Below are positions 796 through 9,947 of a stretch of DNA of 46,994 nucleotides, piece by piece; within the stretch, counting starts at the first letter, position 1, and the number at the start of each line of letters is the position of its first letter. Location: NCBI GenBank assembly GCA_965140885.1, contig CBCSKA010000003.1, positions 1-46,994 of the forward strand, in the 5' to 3' direction. This stretch comes from Legionellaceae bacterium (lineage in GTDB: Bacteria; Pseudomonadota; Gammaproteobacteria; CBCSKA01). The notes beneath the pieces are model-generated. The model searched no databases. It saw only the letters and a list, made by a program, of their open reading frames with translations, and was not told where the DNA came from. The translations under genes were made by a program, and so were the position numbers.

Positions 796-3204
796 ATGCG
801 TGGAATTTCGTTAAAACCCGTCAGTGCTTTCATAAATCGAGCACTGAACAACCTCAATGAAGGTTGGTATAAAACCAAAAACTGGTTTTCACGTCTTTTT
901 AACAAAAATTCACAACCGATTGATGTCAAAAAACAACAAGCGGTAAAAACCCAAGAAAGCTTTACTTTTTTACAGCATGCTTATCAGTATGGTGATAGTA
1001 AAACACTCCTATGGATAGCTGATGCTTATCTGTCTCTTTCATTAGATAAATTAGCCATCAGCTTTTTAAAAAAAGCAATGGCAATATTTCCCCAAGAACC
1101 ACGCTTAAGTGAAATCACGTTACGAGACCGTCTTTATTATCGTTTTGGGCAGTATTACGAAGGAAAATTTGAAGAAAAAAAAGCCATCTACTGGTATTCG
1201 AAGCTTGATAAAAAAGAGAGCGCTTACTACGACTTAGCTAAAATGGCATTAGGTAATATCTATTTAGCAAAAGCGATTGATAATAGCCCCACATTCGATA
1301 CGCTGTATTCTAAACAATACCAACAAAAAGCCACGAAGTATTTTTGGGATGCAGCAATTGAAGGAAGTGACGATGCTGAAAAACTCTATTACTACACCCA
1401 ACATGGGATAGAAGGTGAACTAAAATACCAAGAAGCCCAAGAAAAATTACGAAAAGATAATCAATTCATTGAAAAAGAAAAAAAGAGCAAAAGACTACAA
1501 CGTATCACCACATTACGTGACCGGATAGAAACAACGCTAGAGGCAATAAACAATCAATCCCACTCGTTAAAAAATAGCATTATAACTATTCACAAGGAGT
1601 TTATAGCGATGTTACCTCAACAAAATGCGGATAATGAATTAACTATTATAGAAGATAACAAATCTCAAGAACGCGAAGAAATAATAACACAACCACTGAA
1701 TCAGGCGCCTATACAAGATAAAGAATCGTTAAAAACACAAATGAATATCTTTAAGAAGCGGTACCAAGAAGGTGAAAAAAATATCATTAGCTTGATTGAT
1801 AATCATTTTGAATCACTTCTTGTGAAAGCAACCCAAAGTGATTTTTACAACAAAGTAGAAGCGCTTTTAAATCGCTATCAATCCGCTTTTTATTCCTTTG
1901 AAAACTATAACAGACGCAAAAATAATCCAAAGTGTGAAGATGCGATTGACAAAACCCTTTCAGATTTGAAATGTGCATTAAAAAACGCAAAAGAAGCAAA
2001 ATATGATGAACCGTTAGCAAAATTTTTGTTAAAAATAAAACAATTACCTGCTAATACAGGTTGTTCTCTGTCAGGGTTATACTGGATTAAAAATGGTTCG
2101 GATATTTTTAAGTTTTATAACTTTAGACAAAACCTCAATGCGATTTTAAAAGAATATAACGATGGCACACTGGCTGGAAATAGAATTAAAGGTGAAAACA
2201 ATCCACACGTAATTGAAATCAAAAAACAATATAAGGCACTCAAAAAAGAATTGGCTAAACTTGGGGCAACTGCTCAGCAAACGCATAATGAGATAGTAAC
2301 GCCACTGCTTGAAAAATTAACTAAAACACAACAAGAGCTGGAACTCTTTAAAAAAGAAGAAATCTATATAATTCTTGATAAAGAGAAACAAGGACTACAG
2401 CAAGAATTGAGAGAAGTAAAACAAGAAAATTCTGAATTGAAGGTAAAAATCACAAATGTAGAAAATGAATTAGTAACTCAAAAACAAAACTTTGAGCAGA
2501 AATTTAAACAAGAAAGACAAGAGCGTGCTTCCGAAAAACAAAGTTTTCAACAGGAATTAGTTTCTCAAAAACAAAACTTTCAACAGGAATTAGTAACTCA
2601 AAAACAAAACTTTGAGCAAAAATTCATACAAGAAAGGCAAGAACGCTTCATCGAAAAAAATACGTTAAAAGAAGATTTTTTGAAGAAAATCAAAAAACAG
2701 AAAGAAAAAGTAATGGATATTGACGAAAAATATAAACAGCAAGAACAAAGAGTAGAATTTTTAATAAATATTATGCTGCAACAAACAATACCCCATAACG
2801 AAATGACGAGTAATCAACCCCTAATTCAAGAAATAAGTAAAAAACCAGAATCCCATGATACTTGGATTTGTCCTATAACCCAACTAATTATGGAAGATCC
2901 CGTTATTGCTGAAGATGGGCATAGCTATGAGCGTATTGCTATTATGCAGTGGCTAGAACTTAAAAATATCAGTCCAATAACAAGACAAACTATTAGCGAT
3001 AAATTAATCACTAATTATGCGCTTAAAAACTCTATCGATGAATATCACGAAAATTGCAAAAAATGGGAAGTAGAACAAAACAGTATCCAAAGATCTTCTG
3101 TTGGCTCGTTACCTACTTTTTTTAACCATACCTATTCATCAAGCCGTATGGACAATCAATCTACATCTTCACAGCAAGCATCTACTAACAACAGACGATT
3201 TTAA
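796..3204 (+). CDS. U-box E3 ubiquitin ligase-like effector candidate (TPR/Sel1-like N-terminus, long coiled coil, C-terminal U-box)
   Basis: 802 aa. C-terminal WICPITQLIMEDPVIAEDGHSYERIAIMQWL...SPITRQ...LITNYALKNSI is a U-box signature. The central region is a K/E/Q-rich coiled coil. Confidence 0.85.
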   Translation: MRGISLKPVSAFINRALNNLNEGWYKTKNWFSRLFNKNSQPIDVKKQQAVKTQESFTFLQHAYQYGDSKTLLWIADAYLSLSLDKLAISFLKKAMAIFPQEPRLSEITLRDRLYYRFGQYYEGKFEEKKAIYWYSKLDKKESAYYDLAKMALGNIYLAKAIDNSPTFDTLYSKQYQQKATKYFWDAAIEGSDDAEKLYYYTQHGIEGELKYQEAQEKLRKDNQFIEKEKKSKRLQRITTLRDRIETTLEAINNQSHSLKNSIITIHKEFIAMLPQQNADNELTIIEDNKSQEREEIITQPLNQAPIQDKESLKTQMNIFKKRYQEGEKNIISLIDNHFESLLVKATQSDFYNKVEALLNRYQSAFYSFENYNRRKNNPKCEDAIDKTLSDLKCALKNAKEAKYDEPLAKFLLKIKQLPANTGCSLSGLYWIKNGSDIFKFYNFRQNLNAILKEYNDGTLAGNRIKGENNPHVIEIKKQYKALKKELAKLGATAQQTHNEIVTPLLEKLTKTQQELELFKKEEIYIILDKEKQGLQQELREVKQENSELKVKITNVENELVTQKQNFEQKFKQERQERASEKQSFQQELVSQKQNFQQELVTQKQNFEQKFIQERQERFIEKNTLKEDFLKKIKKQKEKVMDIDEKYKQQEQRVEFLINIMLQQTIPHNEMTSNQPLIQEISKKPESHDTWICPITQLIMEDPVIAEDGHSYERIAIMQWLELKNISPITRQTISDKLITNYALKNSIDEYHENCKKWEVEQNSIQRSSVGSLPTFFNHTYSSSRMDNQSTSSQQASTNNRRF
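2467..2645 (+). repeat. Intragenic coiled-coil repeats: 33-bp tandem unit and ~59-bp duplication
   Basis: caacaggaattagt(tt/aa)ctcaaaaacaaaacttt at 2548-2580 and 2581-2613; ELVTQKQNFEQKF.QERQER at 2467-2525 and 2587-2645. Confidence 0.85.
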
Positions 3205-3478: not shown

Positions 3479-4566
3479 ATGACCTATTCAATTGATTTTA
3501 GAAGACATGTATTAACCATTAAAGCGGAAGAGAATTTAAGTTTTGCAGAAACCTCATTACGATTTAAGATAGGCAAATCAAGCCTTGTGCGTTGGAGCAC
3601 ATGTCTTGGGCCTAAAATAAAGCGTGATAAACCTGCAACTAAAATTAATATGGCGTTATTGAAGCAGGATATACAGAGCTATACCGATAGTTATTATCAT
3701 GAACGAGCCCAACGTTTAGGCGTTAGTAAAACGGGAATTTATTGGGCAATAAAATGTATGGGTATCAGCTATAAAAAAAACGCTACAGCATCCCAAAGCC
3801 GACGCCGAACGGCGGTTATTAATTCAACAGAATTTAACGAATGATAAGTCTTCTAATCGTAAGATAATTTACCTGGATGAAAGTGTCTTTGCTCATGACA
3901 TGCCCCGTACCCATGGCTATTCTGCCAAGGGGAAACGGTGTTATGGCAAACATAACTGGAGTGCACGTGGCCGAACAAGTGTTATTGGCGCGTTACAGGG
4001 AAATACCTTCAACACTCAGTTTGTTTGATGGAATGATTAATGGAGATATTTTTGAAGGCTGGCTAGAACAAGATTTGATCCCGAAATTGCCAGAACGCAG
4101 TGTGGTGATTATGGATAAGGCAGCTTTTCATAAAAGACCCGCAACTCAAACACTACTCGACAAAGCAGGACATACCTTAATGTTTCTGCCTCCTTATTCC
4201 CCTGTTCTTAATCCTATTTAACATACGATAGTGTCTCCATTTTTGAGACCCCTTTTGGGACATCCAAGTCCCCAAAAGGGACAAAAATTGTCGACAAGTA
4301 TGCCTGCGGCAGCCCTGGCCGTCCTGCGTACGCTCGTTATGACACGACTAGGTGTCATAACTTCACTTCCACAAATGACTTGTCGACCGTTTTGTGGGCC
4401 TTATATTTTGCCTTCGGCAAAACATCCGGCACTACGGTCTACCAGGGACTATCGGCCTCGCTCCTTCGTCGCTTCCTTGGCCGACAGCGAATGGGCACAA
4501 GCTAAAGCAATTCGAAAACAACAACACCGTTCTATTTATGATCTATTTAAATACCATTGCCCGTAA
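3479..4566 (+). pseudogene. IS630 transposase pseudogene
   Basis: HTH ORF MTYSIDFR...; A8 slippery run at 3773-3780; YLDES and MDKAAFH motifs; an extra frameshift near 4005; LNPI* where the catalytic Glu codon is TAA (4219-4221); insertion at 4226-4489; then WAQAKAIRK. Confidence 0.9.
4226..4489 (-). mobile_element. 264-bp structured non-autonomous element, copy A1
   Basis: Reverse complement of 9016-9279 with 1 mismatch. Removing it restores cat aaa tgg (H-K-W) of the IS630 transposase. Confidence 0.88.
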
Positions 4567-4612
4567 TCAATTTATAAGGAATTAGCTATAATCAATAAAA
4601 GGATGTTTTCCC

Positions 4613-4747
4613 ATGAAAAATAATACAAACAATAAATGCCACTCATATTTTGACCTTTCACAATACTATTTTGGAAAAAATAACTATGAAAAAAGTTTAA
4701 TTGCCTTGATAAAGTCGGAAGAACAAAAAGAACTAAACACAGATTAA
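4613..4747 (+). pseudogene. Short TPR-like ORF or remnant (44 aa)
   Basis: MKNNTNNKCHSYFDLSQYYFGKNNYEKSLIALIKS..., preceded by aagga. Confidence 0.25.
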
Positions 4748-5020
4748 TATCTAGATGATATATCTAATGATTTAATGGAAATTCTTTTAAAACGTTTCAT
4801 AAAAAACTGTCATGGAAATTAGATAAAAAAATAAGGAAATCAGCAATGAAAACAATACATCACTATAAAAAAAATAGCTTAAAATATCAATTGCTACCAA
4901 TGGAATTTGAAATGAAACTGAAAAAATACAAAATTTCAGTGGTAGAAGATAACCCATTAAATCAAAAAGTCGCTGGTATAACCCTAGAAATGATGGGTTA
5001 TGAGGTGGTGATTGCTAATA

Positions 5021-5940
5021 TAGTGTTTTGATTTCTAAATGATTGATTGAAAGCAATGGTCAATAGCTCCAGCAAGAGTAGTAAATTGGGATATTATTTT
5101 CTTTATCTTTGCTTTTAGGTTAGCCCAGAACTTTTCAATAGGATTAAAATCTGGCGAATAAGGAGGAAGAAATAACAAGTGACATTGAGCGTTGGTTATT
5201 AATGTTTTAGTGCGCTCAGATTTATGAAACGCAGCATTGTCCATAATAATCGTGTAGCCAGGGCCTAAAGTTGGCAGTAGGAATGAGTCCAACCAGAAAT
5301 TAAAAAGATTAGTATCACACGTCCCCTGATAGCACAAAGGCGCGATAACGTTGTTATTGTTCAAACCAGCAATGAAGCTTTCCCTCGCAAAGCGCCTTCC
5401 CGAGACTTCACCCGCAACAGGTTGACCTCGTTTACCCCAGCCGTATTCTCGGGAGATAAAGCTATCAATGCCAGACTCATCAATATATACGCACTTTTCA
5501 TCACTGTATTTTAAACGCTCTACTAGGAACAGCTGACGCTTTTCTTCACTTCGTTCCGAATAGAGCGAGGTCTTTTTTTTCGTGAAATCTTAAGTCGAGA
5601 CAATGCTCGCCACACCCCAGATTCAGTCACTCCAAAATGAGCCGCTATTTCGCTTAAATAAGCATCTGGATGATTTGCCACATATAACTGAAGTAATTCA
5701 TCTTTCAGCTTATAGGGTAAATTTGCCCTTACAGTAGCAGAAACAGTTCCTAACTCTTCTTGCCTCGTTCTCCATCTTTGTATCGACGAGCGACTTACTT
5801 TAAAGAGTTCACAGGCAGATTTAATCAATCCTCCTGAGTTGATGTAGTCTAATACTAGTTTTCTTATATCTGTTGAATGACTCATAATAAATTTTATGAG
5901 TATATCACAATATGTAAGTCATTTTAAAATCAAATTACTA
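5021..5940 (-). mobile_element. IS630-family element, apparently intact (920 bp)
   Basis: Imperfect terminal inverted repeats tagtgttttgatttctaaatga / tcattttaaaatcaaattacta; TA duplication at 5019-5020 and 5941-5942. Confidence 0.93.
5035..5885 (-). CDS. IS630 transposase (two ORFs joined by -1 frameshift)
   Basis: HTH ORF 5523-5885; A8G slippery site at ~5572-5580; the -1 frame is open through YIDESG...IMDNAAFHK...PYSPDFNPIE (complete DDE). Confidence 0.9.
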
Positions 5941-6393
5941 TAACGGAGAAGAAGCCCTTCAAAAATTTGATTCAAGTTATGATTTTATCTTAATGGATGT
6001 CGGTTTGCCCGATATGGACGGGATAGAAGTGGCGCGATGTATCCGCGAAAAAGAATTATCCCTGAATTCCCATGTCATTATTATTGCGGCAACGGCATTT
6101 GGGGATACAGTGTATGAGTCTTGTATAGCAGCAGGAATGGATGATTTTTTAACAAAACCACTTTTTGAAAAAGAGCTAGAAGCAGTACTCAATAAATACC
6201 GATAAATAAACGCTAAAAATGAGTTTAATAATGAATAATACAATAAATACACAAAAATGCCGTCAATATCTTGAAAAAGCAAAAACCTAATTTAGTAATC
6301 AGCCTTATTACAATAAGAGTTTGCTTGTTTTATTAAAGAAGTCAACGAAACTCAAAAGCAGAAAGGACAAATTAGCGTATTAGCGTAACTTAA

Positions 6394-6459
6394 AAAAATA
6401 AAACCCCTGTTTTAATTTATCTTGTAAACGGTGTGCGATTACAAGGCGTCATTATGTAA
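6394..6459 (+). pseudogene. hfq: hfq-like fragment (Sm1 motif)
   Basis: Translates KNKTPVLIYLVNGVRLQGVIM*, matching the Hfq motif (VPVSIYLVNGIKLQG). Flanked by stops. Confidence 0.6.
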
Positions 6460-6540
6460 GCACCATATATATATATTTTTAGCATAAGTTTTGGCAAAGG
6501 GTTTTATCAAAATAGCTTTTTAATGATTTTACTCTTTGCC

Positions 6541-6819
6541 TGCTGGAACACAAGGAAGCGAAGCGAGTGTGACAGCCCTCGCATCATCTGTAGGGCCGTA
6601 TGTTTTGTCGAGGTCTATGCGTTAGCATAGGCAAAGACAAAATAGAAGGCATACCGATACAGATAGAAAGTCACTGTGGTAGTTGTGTTGAACGATAAGT
6701 TCAACGCAACGAACGCAGGACTGGTGCGAGCCGCCGAAGGCACACTAGTCGCTAATTTTTTGCTCCTGAGGGGGACTTGGATGTCCCGTCAGGTTTCGTA
6801 AAAAATAGCGACTCTATCG
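6541..6819 (+). mobile_element. 279-bp divergent copy (B) of the structured element
   Basis: Shares blocks CAAGGAAGCGA, ATGTTTTG, CAAAATA.AAGGC, AAGTCA, ACGCAGGAC, GGGGACTTGGATGTCCC and terminal CTATCG with 9016-9279, in the same order. Confidence 0.82.
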
Positions 6820-6868
6820 AACTCTATTTAATTTTATATAAAAAATAGAAATTTGATTTTACTCTCGA

Positions 6869-7372
6869 TTAGGGACGCGGAGAAGCTTCTTCATAAAATG
6901 GTGCTGTTGGTTCTTGGCAATTATCTTTTGTATTATTTGTAGAATTAGAGTTATGAAAGAATTGTATCGATGAATTTTCAGTGTAATTTGGATTTTGAGA
7001 ATATTTGTTTTTTTCATATGGTACATTCACAAATTGATCCAAGGAAAAAATTTCTTTTATTTTTTTATTTTCTTCTAATATTTCATTTGTATATGTTTGA
7101 TGATTAACAATTACATCATTATTTAAGTCAATAACTTCACCTAAAATATTTGCTATGTCATTTTTTGTGAAAAATTCATTATTAGATAATAAATTTTTAA
7201 TATTTTCTATTACATTTTTAATATCTTCTATATTAGCATAAAACAAAGATTCTAAATTATTTTCATTCGTTGTGATAACATTATTAACTGTAGCTAGATT
7301 TTCTTTATTTAAACTAACATTTTCATTTTTAGATAAAGTTTTAGTATAAGTTTGAGGCATTGGAATTAGCAT
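6869..7372 (-). CDS. Hypothetical Asn-rich protein
   Basis: 167-aa ORF, aagga upstream, no recognised motif. Confidence 0.6.
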   Translation of the reverse strand: MLIPMPQTYTKTLSKNENVSLNKENLATVNNVITTNENNLESLFYANIEDIKNVIENIKNLLSNNEFFTKNDIANILGEVIDLNNDVIVNHQTYTNEILEENKKIKEIFSLDQFVNVPYEKNKYSQNPNYTENSSIQFFHNSNSTNNTKDNCQEPTAPFYEEASPRP

Positions 7373-7625
7373 AAAAAATCCTTGTATAAGCTAGCGATCA
7401 TTGAAGAGATATTATTTTTACTGTGAATTCATTTTAAAAAAGCTTTTAAAATGAATCAACTATTTTCGAATAAATTTAAAAAAGAAATGAGCGAAATACA
7501 TTTCTGAATCAATTTATAAAAGTTAAAATGAGTAAAATAATTTCTTATTTCAAATTTAGCTTATACTAATATTTTTTAAATAATTAATATATCCCTAGGG
7601 TTTATACTTATATTCATTAGATGTA

Positions 7626-8630
7626 TTACTTAAATAGCTTTTGATAGCTTTTGATATCTTCTTTATTTTTGAATGTTTGATTTGTTTCAGCTATTTTAAT
7701 AGTAAAATTATTATCAGAGTTAGTTAAGAAATAATCAAGTATGGCATCTATTTCCTTTTTATTTTCTCCTGTAATTACAATATTGTTTATTTTTGCTATT
7801 TCAATTATTTCCAAACTAGCTTTTAGAGCAAGTAAAAAATGGTTTTTTGTAGCATTAGGTAATGTTATTTTATTTTTTGATACAGAAATTAATTCTGAAC
7901 TATTTTGTTTTTCATCAGCATAGGAAATTCTATTTGTTTTAGTATCATATTGATACTGAATTTTATTATTTGTGTTATCCTTACACCATTGTTCAGCAAC
8001 TTTGGTTAAATCAATAGGTTCTGATATTTGAATAGAATTTGTTGATTTTTGAAGTGATTTGAAAAAATTACAATTTTCAAGATTTGATTTCTCTTTTGTC
8101 GTAGATTGTACTTTATTATTTTCGTCAAGTTGTAACTTATTTTTAATTAAAATATCATGAAGTATTGAATTATCAATATTAATTTCTTTTAAAATATTCT
8201 TTTTTTGTTTTTCATCATATATAAAAACGGAAGATATGTTGCCTAGCTCAGTACCATCCCTTAATTTTAAATTTTCTAATTCTATATTACAGTAAATTTG
8301 ATTTTGATCTTTGTATATTTTAATTAATACATTAAATTTTTCATCTAATTTTTTATTTGTTATAAGTGCATTTTTTATCGCTTTTATGAAAGTAGATGTT
8401 TTTATTCGGCAAGTTTTTGTAATTTCTTCCGCATTACTAATTCCAAGTTGACTATTTATTTGTTTTAGTAATTTTATTTCATCTTCTTTTGTTTTTATTT
8501 CTTTTTCATTTATCAGTAAGTTATCTATATTGATGTTTTGAATAAAACCGTTACTTGCTTCATTTGAAAACATATTTTTGATATAAATATTTTTCGAATT
8601 TTTTAAATCTTCCCTGGTTAATGTAATCAT
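7626..8630 (-). CDS. Hypothetical Lys/Asn/Ile-rich protein
   Basis: 334-aa ORF in extremely AT-rich DNA, aagga upstream. Confidence 0.7.
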   Translation of the reverse strand: MITLTREDLKNSKNIYIKNMFSNEASNGFIQNINIDNLLINEKEIKTKEDEIKLLKQINSQLGISNAEEITKTCRIKTSTFIKAIKNALITNKKLDEKFNVLIKIYKDQNQIYCNIELENLKLRDGTELGNISSVFIYDEKQKKNILKEINIDNSILHDILIKNKLQLDENNKVQSTTKEKSNLENCNFFKSLQKSTNSIQISEPIDLTKVAEQWCKDNTNNKIQYQYDTKTNRISYADEKQNSSELISVSKNKITLPNATKNHFLLALKASLEIIEIAKINNIVITGENKKEIDAILDYFLTNSDNNFTIKIAETNQTFKNKEDIKSYQKLFK

Positions 8631-9015
8631 TTTTTATCTTCCTTTTTTTTTGAATTTAGATTTTTACTATTTATTTTTTTAATTAATAAACAACAAATAG
8701 AAAGGAAAAAAAATAATTACTGCCAAAAAGAAATAGAGTCTATTTCTAAAAACTCCAAATAGCACATTGTCCTTATGTAACTATTTGTTTGAGTGAGTAA
8801 ACAGAGATAATCCTTATCATCTGTCTAGCAGTTTATTTAATTTTTATCCTTAACATCATCCTTAATGTTTGCTGCTTATAAGTTAAGTATGTAATTGATT
8901 AATTTATTTACCAGGGGGTTTTTATTCTTAAATTTGTAAGATAATAGCTATTATGTTGATACCTGGAAATTTTATGAAAATTTAATTAACAAGAGAGGGG
9001 GGGTAGGCATTCACA

Positions 9016-9279
9016 CGCTGTCGGCCAAGGAAGCGACGAAGGAGCGAGGCCGATAGTCCCTGGTAGACCGTAGTGCCGGATGTTTTGCCGAAGGCAAAAT
9101 ATAAGGCCCACAAAACGGTCGACAAGTCATTTGTGGAAGTGAAGTTATGACACCTAGTCGTGTCATAACGAGCGTACGCAGGACGGCCAGGGCTGCCGCA
9201 GGCATACTTGTCGACAATTTTTGTCCCTTTTGGGGACTTGGATGTCCCAAAAGGGGTCTCAAAAATGGCGACACTATCG
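9016..9279 (+). mobile_element. 264-bp structured non-autonomous element, copy A2
   Basis: GC-rich island in AT-rich intergenic DNA; 263/264 identical to the reverse complement of 4226-4489. Confidence 0.88.
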
Positions 9280-9359
9280 TTTTTATGAAAAGGAAAATTA
9301 TTAATAGCATAGGGGTGACTTAGCTATTTTTCCATTACCTATTATTTAATAGAATATCC

Positions 9360-9947
9360 TTAATTTAAGGTTGGAATTACACTTTCAATAAGATTATCAA
9401 TACACGGTAAAATATATCCTTGAAATTTAAATGTAGTGATTCCCCTTGCTTGACAAAAAGTATTATAAACACTGTTACTATTATAGCTTTCTTGTTGAGT
9501 TATACTTTGCCAATTAATGCCAAAGCGTGAATAATCTAAATCTTTAGTATTAATTGCTGGTAAAATAGATAAAGCTTTATGCCATTTTTCCAATACTCCT
9601 TTTCGATTTCCTTCTACCAGTGTTTGCCGTGAATTAGCCATTAATGTTTGTTTAGCACCAATTTGCTTAATACCTAAAATAGTAGCGCGTTTTTCATTTA
9701 ATATAATATGGTGCGCTCTAATACTATGTTCTTTTTTCTAACCAATGGGGACCATAATATTTGGAGAGGTACGTAGTGTTGCATAGCCATGAAGTTGAGC
9801 AATATCTATTTCTTGTTGATTTTTTCTTTCAACTAAAATAAGAAAACAATGTCCCAATAAAGGTGTTATTTTGGAAATAGTAATGGGAAAAAAAGGGGGA
9901 ATAGTAAAAACAGCAGCATCAATTTTATAGTTGTAAGTAGTTTCCAT
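9360..9947 (-). pseudogene. Hypothetical ~195-aa protein broken by one in-frame TAG
   Basis: ORFs 9738-9947 and 9360-9641 are in the same frame. The intervening sequence KKEHSIRAHHIILNEKRATILGIKQIGAKQTL is open after the TAG at 9738-9740. Confidence 0.75.

Follow-up and report, generated by a model that had tools for sequence, protein, structure and literature searches.

What kind of DNA spreads through a bacterial genome in near-identical copies, breaks genes on its way and brings no gene of its own? This question is raised by a 46,994-nucleotide stretch of a Legionellaceae genome (the window; assembly GCA_965140885.1, contig CBCSKA010000003.1, positions 1 to 46,994), in which an earlier note, made from the sequence alone, had picked out a three-copy family of GC-rich islands at 4226-4489 on the minus strand and at 9016-9279 and 6541-6819 on the plus strand. 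We were able to reproduce all of these coordinates, as well as the single base by which the first two islands differ. The islands belong to a family of mobile DNA that is widespread, gene-free and apparently undescribed. As for how it moves, we consider it quite possible, if not yet probable, that this is a single-stranded DNA (ssDNA) element pasted at the cleavage sites of topoisomerase I, probably by the host enzyme itself.

The first two copies (c1, 4226-4489, minus strand; c2, 9016-9279, plus strand) are both 264 nucleotides (nt) long, have their sole mismatch at element position 254 (A/C) and represent subfamily A. Copy c2 is intergenic, is identical to nine other copies in the genome and scores 175 bits with a covariance model of the family, while c1 lies antisense in an IS630-family transposase gene (3479-4590, plus strand; HTH_Tnp_IS630 and DDE_3 domains), which it breaks. 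The third copy (c3, 6541-6819, plus strand; 278-279 nt, covariance model E 2e-29) is a diverged relative, assigned to subfamily B along with four other full copies in the genome; 190 of 295 alignment columns are identical to the 264-nt form and the order of the blocks is kept. As the five B copies do not agree in their first letter, and as the junction with another context falls at 6542, c3 probably begins at 6542. The GC content of c1, c2 and c3 is 0.53, 0.53 and 0.49, compared to 0.33 for the window. Inverted matching between the ends of subfamily A extends to only 5 of 10 and 7 of 25 bases and there are therefore no terminal inverted repeats (TIRs), and no conserved open reading frame (ORF) is present, the longest stop-free stretch being 87 amino acids in A and 57 in B. 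Nor was a linked ORF seen in the copies examined, so that the earlier note's description of an element with neither TIRs nor a conserved ORF or transposase holds.

Insertion of the element is exact. An uninterrupted IS630 paralogue in the same genome (G000 C25:1-100) runs across the c1 site with nothing gained or lost, and in contigs of three public runs (X1, X2 and X4) precisely the bases 4226-4489 are missing, with no ambiguity in position; these run contigs are other IS630 copies and thus represent paralogous empty sites, not the same locus. None of the public-run contigs joins across 9016-9279 or 6541-6819. Comparison of the filled and empty sites, and of the termini, shows neither target duplication nor TIRs. 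When full A copies were removed in silico, an ORF of at least 100 amino acids was restored in 18 of 47 cases, 12 with the element in sense and six in antisense orientation. The remaining 29 copies are intergenic and show no preferred direction with respect to the genes beside them: on the left, 13 run the same way and 15 the opposite way, and on the right 16 and 13. Thus, the element breaks genes and ignores transcription.

The genome to which the window belongs (G000; 1,624,929 bases in 158 contigs, 33% GC, 80% complete) contains 47 full copies of A (264 nt) and five of B (279 nt) by BLAST. Moreover, 77 left and 77 right A junctions can be counted, which gives approximately 77 A copies, and the element makes up about 1.2% of the genome. 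Of the 316 contig ends of the assembly, 60 fall within A, which makes the element the main reason for its fragmentation. These numbers are far above what chance would give. The mobility proposed in the earlier note is therefore borne out both by some 77 near-identical copies and by the filled/empty pair in the IS630 gene; further copies and an exact, if paralogous, empty site, the absence of which would have spoken against it, do exist.

The family is not confined to this genome. Exact copies of its most conserved block, a 17-nt hairpin tip, are present in at least 96 genome stretches from other species, and the matches, among those listed, are mostly from Gammaproteobacteria with one from Allosphingosinicella. 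Carriers include Legionella longbeachae, L. santicrucis, a Solemya symbiont, Sedimenticola, Thiodiazotropha and Methylomarinum, as well as a Legionellaceae metagenome-assembled genome (MAG) with dozens of contig ends inside the element; what few matches there are in other phyla appear to be hairpins matched by chance. A covariance model of the kind suggested in the earlier note (R1, built from 20 diverse members) was run on 150 other genomes of the class, taken one per family, and detected copies in 22 of them; when only genomes of good quality are considered, the window's own included, the family is present in 19 of 122. G039 and G141, both unpublished, are part of these tallies. When 150 genomes were instead taken from across the phylum, one was positive. 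G000 is the sole member of its order among the species genomes sampled. Copy numbers can be very high, with all 150 scored candidates (748 candidates in all) being copies in the complete genome G044 and 148 of 150 scored candidates in the complete genome G142, so that these carry at least 150 and at least 148 copies respectively. When plasmids and phages were searched by blastn with a high-scoring member, nothing matched.

What is conserved in the element is its fold. Folded as RNA the plus strand reaches -111.6 and -126.3 kcal/mol (z -6.7 and -10.7), with none of 200 shuffles as good; folded as DNA it has a z of -5.5. For the opposite strand z is only -4.9. Covariation was assessed in 65 distinct sequences aligned to the model, an alignment which is fitted to the model and hence leans towards it, where standard pairs occupy 92.9% of pair cells versus 33-47% when partners are slid by one to three columns; 43 of 49 pairs have changes on both sides, i.e., are compensatory, and none of 500 shuffles matches any of five measures. 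With an independent MAFFT alignment of 20 sequences and RNAalifold, 31 of the 49 pairs remain compensatory. There are 171 G:U cells against 56 A:C cells, which identifies the top strand as the folding strand. The fold is under selection, on the top strand only, and these two results lend weight to the earlier suggestion that the identity of the element lies in its single-stranded fold.

Overall, members of the family are 230-300 nt long and are defined by the fold of the top strand (that which begins 5'-CGCTG), with 11 helices over 264-300 nt. In c2 (plus strand throughout) a 5' hairpin begins at the second base (9017-9057), has a loop with a conserved A-N-GGA block and covaries in seven of nine pairs of helices 1-2. 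It is followed by a central multi-branched domain closed by a long-range helix (9058-9191), in which helices 3-6 all have compensatory changes, and by a long 3' hairpin (9209-9272) whose tip (9232-9248) is the conserved 17-nt block, with a 5-bp stem and a GGA loop. The element ends in an unpaired 7-nt tail (9273-9279) that is subfamily-specific, although its second base is nearly always C; subfamilies differ in the last base, which may be G, A or C. The hairpins at the two ends do not resemble one another. Derivatives shortened by deletion to 130-175 nt retain the 5' hairpin and the last ~100 nt, which suggests that the ends are the parts required in cis. Pairing of the 7-nt tail with an internal guide gave no signal, mean complementarity being 5.59 of 7 for a tail's own element and 5.45 when tails were swapped. 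We also note head-to-tail dimers in G044 (L196 at ~781.3 kb and L211 at ~903.2 kb of G044:C1) with different flanks, whose inner junction is without the last two tail bases; they seem to derive from one event and to have later moved as a unit.

The target of the element is defined by a single base. At subfamily A junctions of G000 there is a cytosine four nucleotides upstream of the insertion point (position -4) in 77 of 77 cases, among them c2 (C at 9012, plus strand), and for c1 the corresponding base is at 4493, read on the minus strand. The same holds for 22 of 23 distinct elements of other species, 42 of 44 distinct junctions in G044 (53% GC), all nine junctions in G142 and both copies in G035. 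Position -5 holds A or T at 74 of the 77 G000 junctions and C is avoided there (1/77 in G000, 0/44 in G044). There is no constraint on -3 to -1 or on the flank downstream; T occurs at -1 in 46 of the 77 G000 junctions. Empty sites made in silico have less structure and a lower GC content than control D-C sites (mean -5.0 versus -6.5 kcal/mol, GC 0.26 versus 0.34) and thus show no hairpin signal. In G044, one copy (L165, G044:C1:3163271-3164200) lies within a Y1-like gene that carries a frameshift; it is in sense with this gene and again follows a C by 4 nt.

Orientation follows replication. In G142 (dnaA at 2.236 Mb) 131 of 143 copies fit the replichores defined by dnaA (p 2e-26), as do 121 of 150 copies in G044 (dnaA at 0.574 Mb; p 1e-14). 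In both chromosomes the replichore on the right of dnaA has its copies as '+' and the opposite one as '-', with a second switch approximately half a chromosome away, and GC skew agrees with this assignment (+0.08 on the right and -0.08 on the left replichore for 33 G044 loci, with five G142 loci in agreement). As orientation flips at dnaA, the folding strand is the lagging-strand template. Such a bias linked to replication supports an ssDNA stage, and the same bias towards the lagging-strand template is described for IS200/IS605 elements (PMC5027513).

Despite its abundance, no gene or enzyme could be tied to the element. ORFs around the loci of a pattern scan, once clustered, included none that recurred except read-through ORFs and IS110 genes inserted in the element, and degraded partial copies in G000 carried no ORF. 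The earlier note had proposed looking for longer versions with the same ends that enclose an ORF; there were none among 54, 150 and 148 model hits in three genomes, i.e., more than 350 hits, all 230-300 nt long. Y1_Tnp is not enriched in carriers (15/23 genomes) compared with non-carriers (79/128), and neither G035 (99% complete; two copies, 245/246 identical, with different flanks) nor G130 (100% complete, four copies) has a match to Y1, Y2, reverse transcriptase or IS110. G044 has no reverse transcriptase and no Y2, and its Y1 matches are RAYT-like; genes of this kind are present in G044 and G112. Among five hosts tested Y2_Tnp was found in G142 only, and no IS110 transposase scored above the curated cut-off in G035, G130, G142 or G044. 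In G000 there are one IS200 TnpA with ends unlike the element, two reverse transcriptase genes and one IS110 fragment, and no RAYT (tblastn with four RAYT-like proteins), TnpB zinc-ribbon domain or Y2; the IS200 copies of G000 and G142 have ends unrelated to the element and show no link to it. TopA, on the other hand, is encoded by all carriers that were examined and, in total, by 146 of the 151 genomes in the sample. G000 encodes both TopA and TopB. A second type IA topoisomerase gene is present in G000, G044 and G047 but absent from G142 and hence TopB is not required. Of the non-autonomous family mobilised in trans that the earlier note had envisaged, the mobility and the lack of a linked gene thus stand, while the agent acting in trans is one that we infer.

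Taken together, the requirement for ssDNA, the replication bias and the failure to find a transposase favour hijacking of TopA. All bacterial and archaeal topoisomerases I and reverse gyrases that have been characterised cut ssDNA where a C stands four bases to the 5' side of the break. Topoisomerase III follows a different rule, and topoisomerase I leaves a 3'-OH on the C-N-N-N side while binding the 5' phosphate (PMC3467081; PMC7587558). The target of the element, with its cytosine 4 nt 5' of the insertion point, matches this rule, and the polarity of the topoisomerase is that which is needed to join the target to the 5' end of the element. We hypothesise, as a conceivable though still speculative scheme, that this is a transposon without any transposase, in which folded ssDNA recruits TopA and turns cut-and-reseal into cut-and-paste. 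The element would spread as ssDNA at the replication fork, where its folding strand lies on the lagging-strand template, and the essential TopA of the host would be borrowed as strand transferase. Having been inserted 4 nt after a C, every integrated copy would sit behind a TopA site, and a TopA cut there would activate the 5' end of the element. The fold would hold both ends and the enzyme together while the 3'-OH of a cut target is joined to the element 5' end, and release and joining of the 3' end would presumably follow, so that new copies would be pasted without duplication into an ssDNA target, directly after 5'-D-C-N-N-N.

Several observations weigh against hijacking of TopA. The link to this enzyme comes from one sequence rule together with negative evidence, and literature searches found no report of TopA in the role of a transposase. 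Were TopA to cut the 3' end as well, a C would be expected 4 nt ahead of this end; many subfamilies do have C at that place, but the two richest in near-identical copies have A (subfamily A, ~77 copies) and T (the subfamily of G142, at least 148 copies). The near-universal C of the tail lies six, not four, nucleotides before the end, and simple models fail for the last two bases; an origin of these from the target or from a circle junction was ruled out, as the empty site has no such bases. Subfamily B obeys the target rule less well, with C at -4 in three of five junctions if the element is taken to start at its G and in one of five otherwise (for the start one base later, one further junction with C at -4 was seen in a run contig), and c3 is without C at -4 under either boundary. 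Furthermore, TopA is universal and the element is patchy (22/150 genomes in the class, 1/150 in the phylum), while G000 is 80% complete and one of its contigs (C43, 5190 bases) reads N throughout, leaving its gene content unread.

It may also be that the same ssDNA life cycle is served by a dedicated transposase encoded elsewhere, of a family beyond the models used here, which reads a C 4 nt from the cut; we regard this as a serious possibility, albeit a doubtful one. To our knowledge, all known non-autonomous bacterial elements depend on a dedicated transposase. The patchy distribution (22/150) is what an enzyme moving horizontally would give, 3' tails that differ by subfamily are like ends read by co-evolving proteins, and only five enzyme families were covered by our searches. 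However, no ORF recurs beside the element at the pattern-scan loci and no long version exists among the model hits, and a lone C at -4 with free positions -3 to -1 is unlike the HUH motifs, which abut the cut (TTAC for IS608, PMC5027513). A more specific form of enzyme-driven movement, which we consider unlikely, would make the element a non-autonomous relative of IS200/IS605 (a palindrome-associated transposable element, PATE) or of a repetitive extragenic palindromic (REP) sequence or REPIN, moved by a Y1 HUH transposase such as TnpA or RAYT. The resemblance is considerable, in that ssDNA logic, exact insertion without duplication or TIRs, structured ends with hairpins near both of them, a target motif on the 5' side only and a lagging-strand bias are all shared (PMC5027513; PMC6006769), and there are an IS200 TnpA in G000 and RAYT-like genes in G044 and G112. 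Against this, the IS200 ends are unrelated to the element, tblastn found no RAYT in G000, and Y1_Tnp is neither enriched in carriers nor present in the nearly complete carriers G035 and G130, where the element has no TnpA partner; no autonomous partner with the same ends was found either. IS200/IS605 targets are motifs of 4-5 nt abutting the left end rather than a single C 4 nt away, only their ends and not a whole 260-300 nt are under structural selection, and the 5' hairpin of our element starts at base 2, which leaves no room for a guide. REPs, bacterial interspersed mosaic elements (BIMEs) and REPINs with RAYT are likewise GC-rich, multi-copy, structured repeats that serve as IS110 landing sites, but the element, at 260-300 nt with 11 helices, is some ten times larger, has an asymmetric multi-helix fold with dissimilar end hairpins, also inserts inside genes and occurs in several hosts without RAYT.

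Movement at the level of RNA, in which the fold would be that of a ribozyme or intron-like RNA, or of a retroelement copied back into DNA, appears very unlikely to us. One G:U pair is kept in 44 of the 55 sequences with letters at that place, hairpin loops are purine-rich, the strand bias equals the direction of leading-strand transcription, and 12 of the 18 intragenic copies are in sense. But the other six, c1 among them, are antisense, orientation relative to neighbouring genes is random, eight members found no match in Rfam, and G044, G035 and G130 have no reverse transcriptase. A T precedes the element at only 46 of 77 junctions and its last base is not always G, unlike group I introns, and target-primed reverse transcription would place the conserved base beside the 3' end on the other strand. 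Most improbable, in our view, is that we are dealing mainly with a family of functional non-coding RNA genes, for example one that titrates CsrA, which is spread by other means and for which mobility is incidental, although this would be compatible with the other readings. Two conserved GGA blocks lie in hairpin loops (element ~12-20 and 217-233; window 9027-9035 and 9232-9248), the 3' one resembling the published consensus for CsrA obtained by systematic evolution of ligands by exponential enrichment (SELEX), so that transcripts of the element could bind CsrA. Nevertheless, ORFs are broken by 18 of the 47 copies, the genomic context is not fixed and a need for a promoter is not evident; copies that are nearly identical and number in the hundreds, the strictness of the target rule and an orientation tied to replication speak for selfish spread.

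How, then, does the element compare with other known systems? The earlier note could not place it among TIR-MITEs (MITE standing for miniature inverted-repeat transposable element), group I or II introns or known REPs, and none of these memberships held up here; nor did Rfam 15, a comparison also suggested there, contain a matching family, either for the whole window at gathering thresholds or at E<=10 (4000-9500) and E<=1 (six diverse members), where chance matches to small nucleolar RNAs and microRNAs fell outside the element only. A TIR-MITE is ruled out as there are neither TIRs nor target site duplications, a group I intron by the lack of an Rfam match along with the variable bases at both junctions and the antisense intragenic copies, and a group II intron or retroelement by Rfam and by the absence of RVT_1 from G044, G035 and G130. 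IS110 systems with a bridge RNA were rejected because no DEDD transposase was found in G035, G130, G142 or G044 and targets share one base only. The OMEGA RNAs of TnpB and IscB, including HEARO, have no Rfam match, no TnpB domain in G000 and no neighbouring ORF, IscB itself not having been searched for directly. IS91 and Helitrons share with the element asymmetric ends, a 3' hairpin with a short tail, the absence of duplication and a one-sided target, but Y2 is present in only one of five hosts tested and the element has no fixed tetranucleotide as its target. Integron attC sites and phages of the CTX type, which hijack the housekeeping host enzyme XerCD, also have their identity in a single-strand fold. 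These systems, however, use tyrosine recombinases and defined att or dif sites, while our element enters any D-C-N-N-N in ssDNA and a type IA topoisomerase is suspected of acting on it. Cleavage sites of topoisomerase I are themselves alike in the C 4 nt 5' of the break, in being single-stranded and in the side that carries the 3'-OH (PMC3467081; PMC7587558), but the enzyme normally reseals the same strand and literature searches found no role for it in transposition. In the literature searched, supplements left out, we found neither an element of this kind nor a transposon driven by a topoisomerase described, and the conserved 17-mer turned up in none of it.

Other mobile DNA is found in and around copies of the element. 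IS110-family genes, recognised by an N-terminal motif identified by eye, lie inside copies in three other genomes (L053:3007-4137, L066:2989-3981 and L072:716-1798, all on the minus strand), where they interrupt the element beside the conserved hairpin tip or after the 5' hairpin. REPs are known landing sites of IS110, and the element seems to be a landing pad for it in the same way. G142 has 52 matches to an IS91-family Y2 transposase, of which at least one (G142:C1 639013-639844) is split by the element at 639128-639413. In the window, two IS630-family transposase genes in opposite orientation occupy 3479-5885, one of them being that split by c1, and the whole of 3.4-6.9 kb is a nest of mobile DNA. 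The region 7000-8900 is very AT-rich (18-25% GC), with ORFs at 6869-7372 and 7626-8630 (both minus strand) that have no Pfam match. An 802-amino acid ORF at 796-3204 (plus strand) contains a eukaryote-type U-box domain (E 4e-14), a kind found in effectors of intracellular bacteria, and a multi-copy leucine-rich-repeat protein is also encoded in G000 (C8:7-1335).

If it is true that host TopA moves the element, this would be the first topoisomerase to serve as a transposase, and the element could in principle be moved by any bacterium; it would need no gene and could not be silenced through loss of a transposase. The strict rule of C at -4 and no C at -5 would then be a record of where ssDNA is cleaved in vivo at replication forks. 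If instead a hidden transposase exists, the family would still be a widespread and abundant shaper of genomes that is missing from databases and interrupts at least 18 ORFs in the genome studied here. With the covariance model and the target rule the family can readily be annotated, and they account for assembly breaks in many MAGs.

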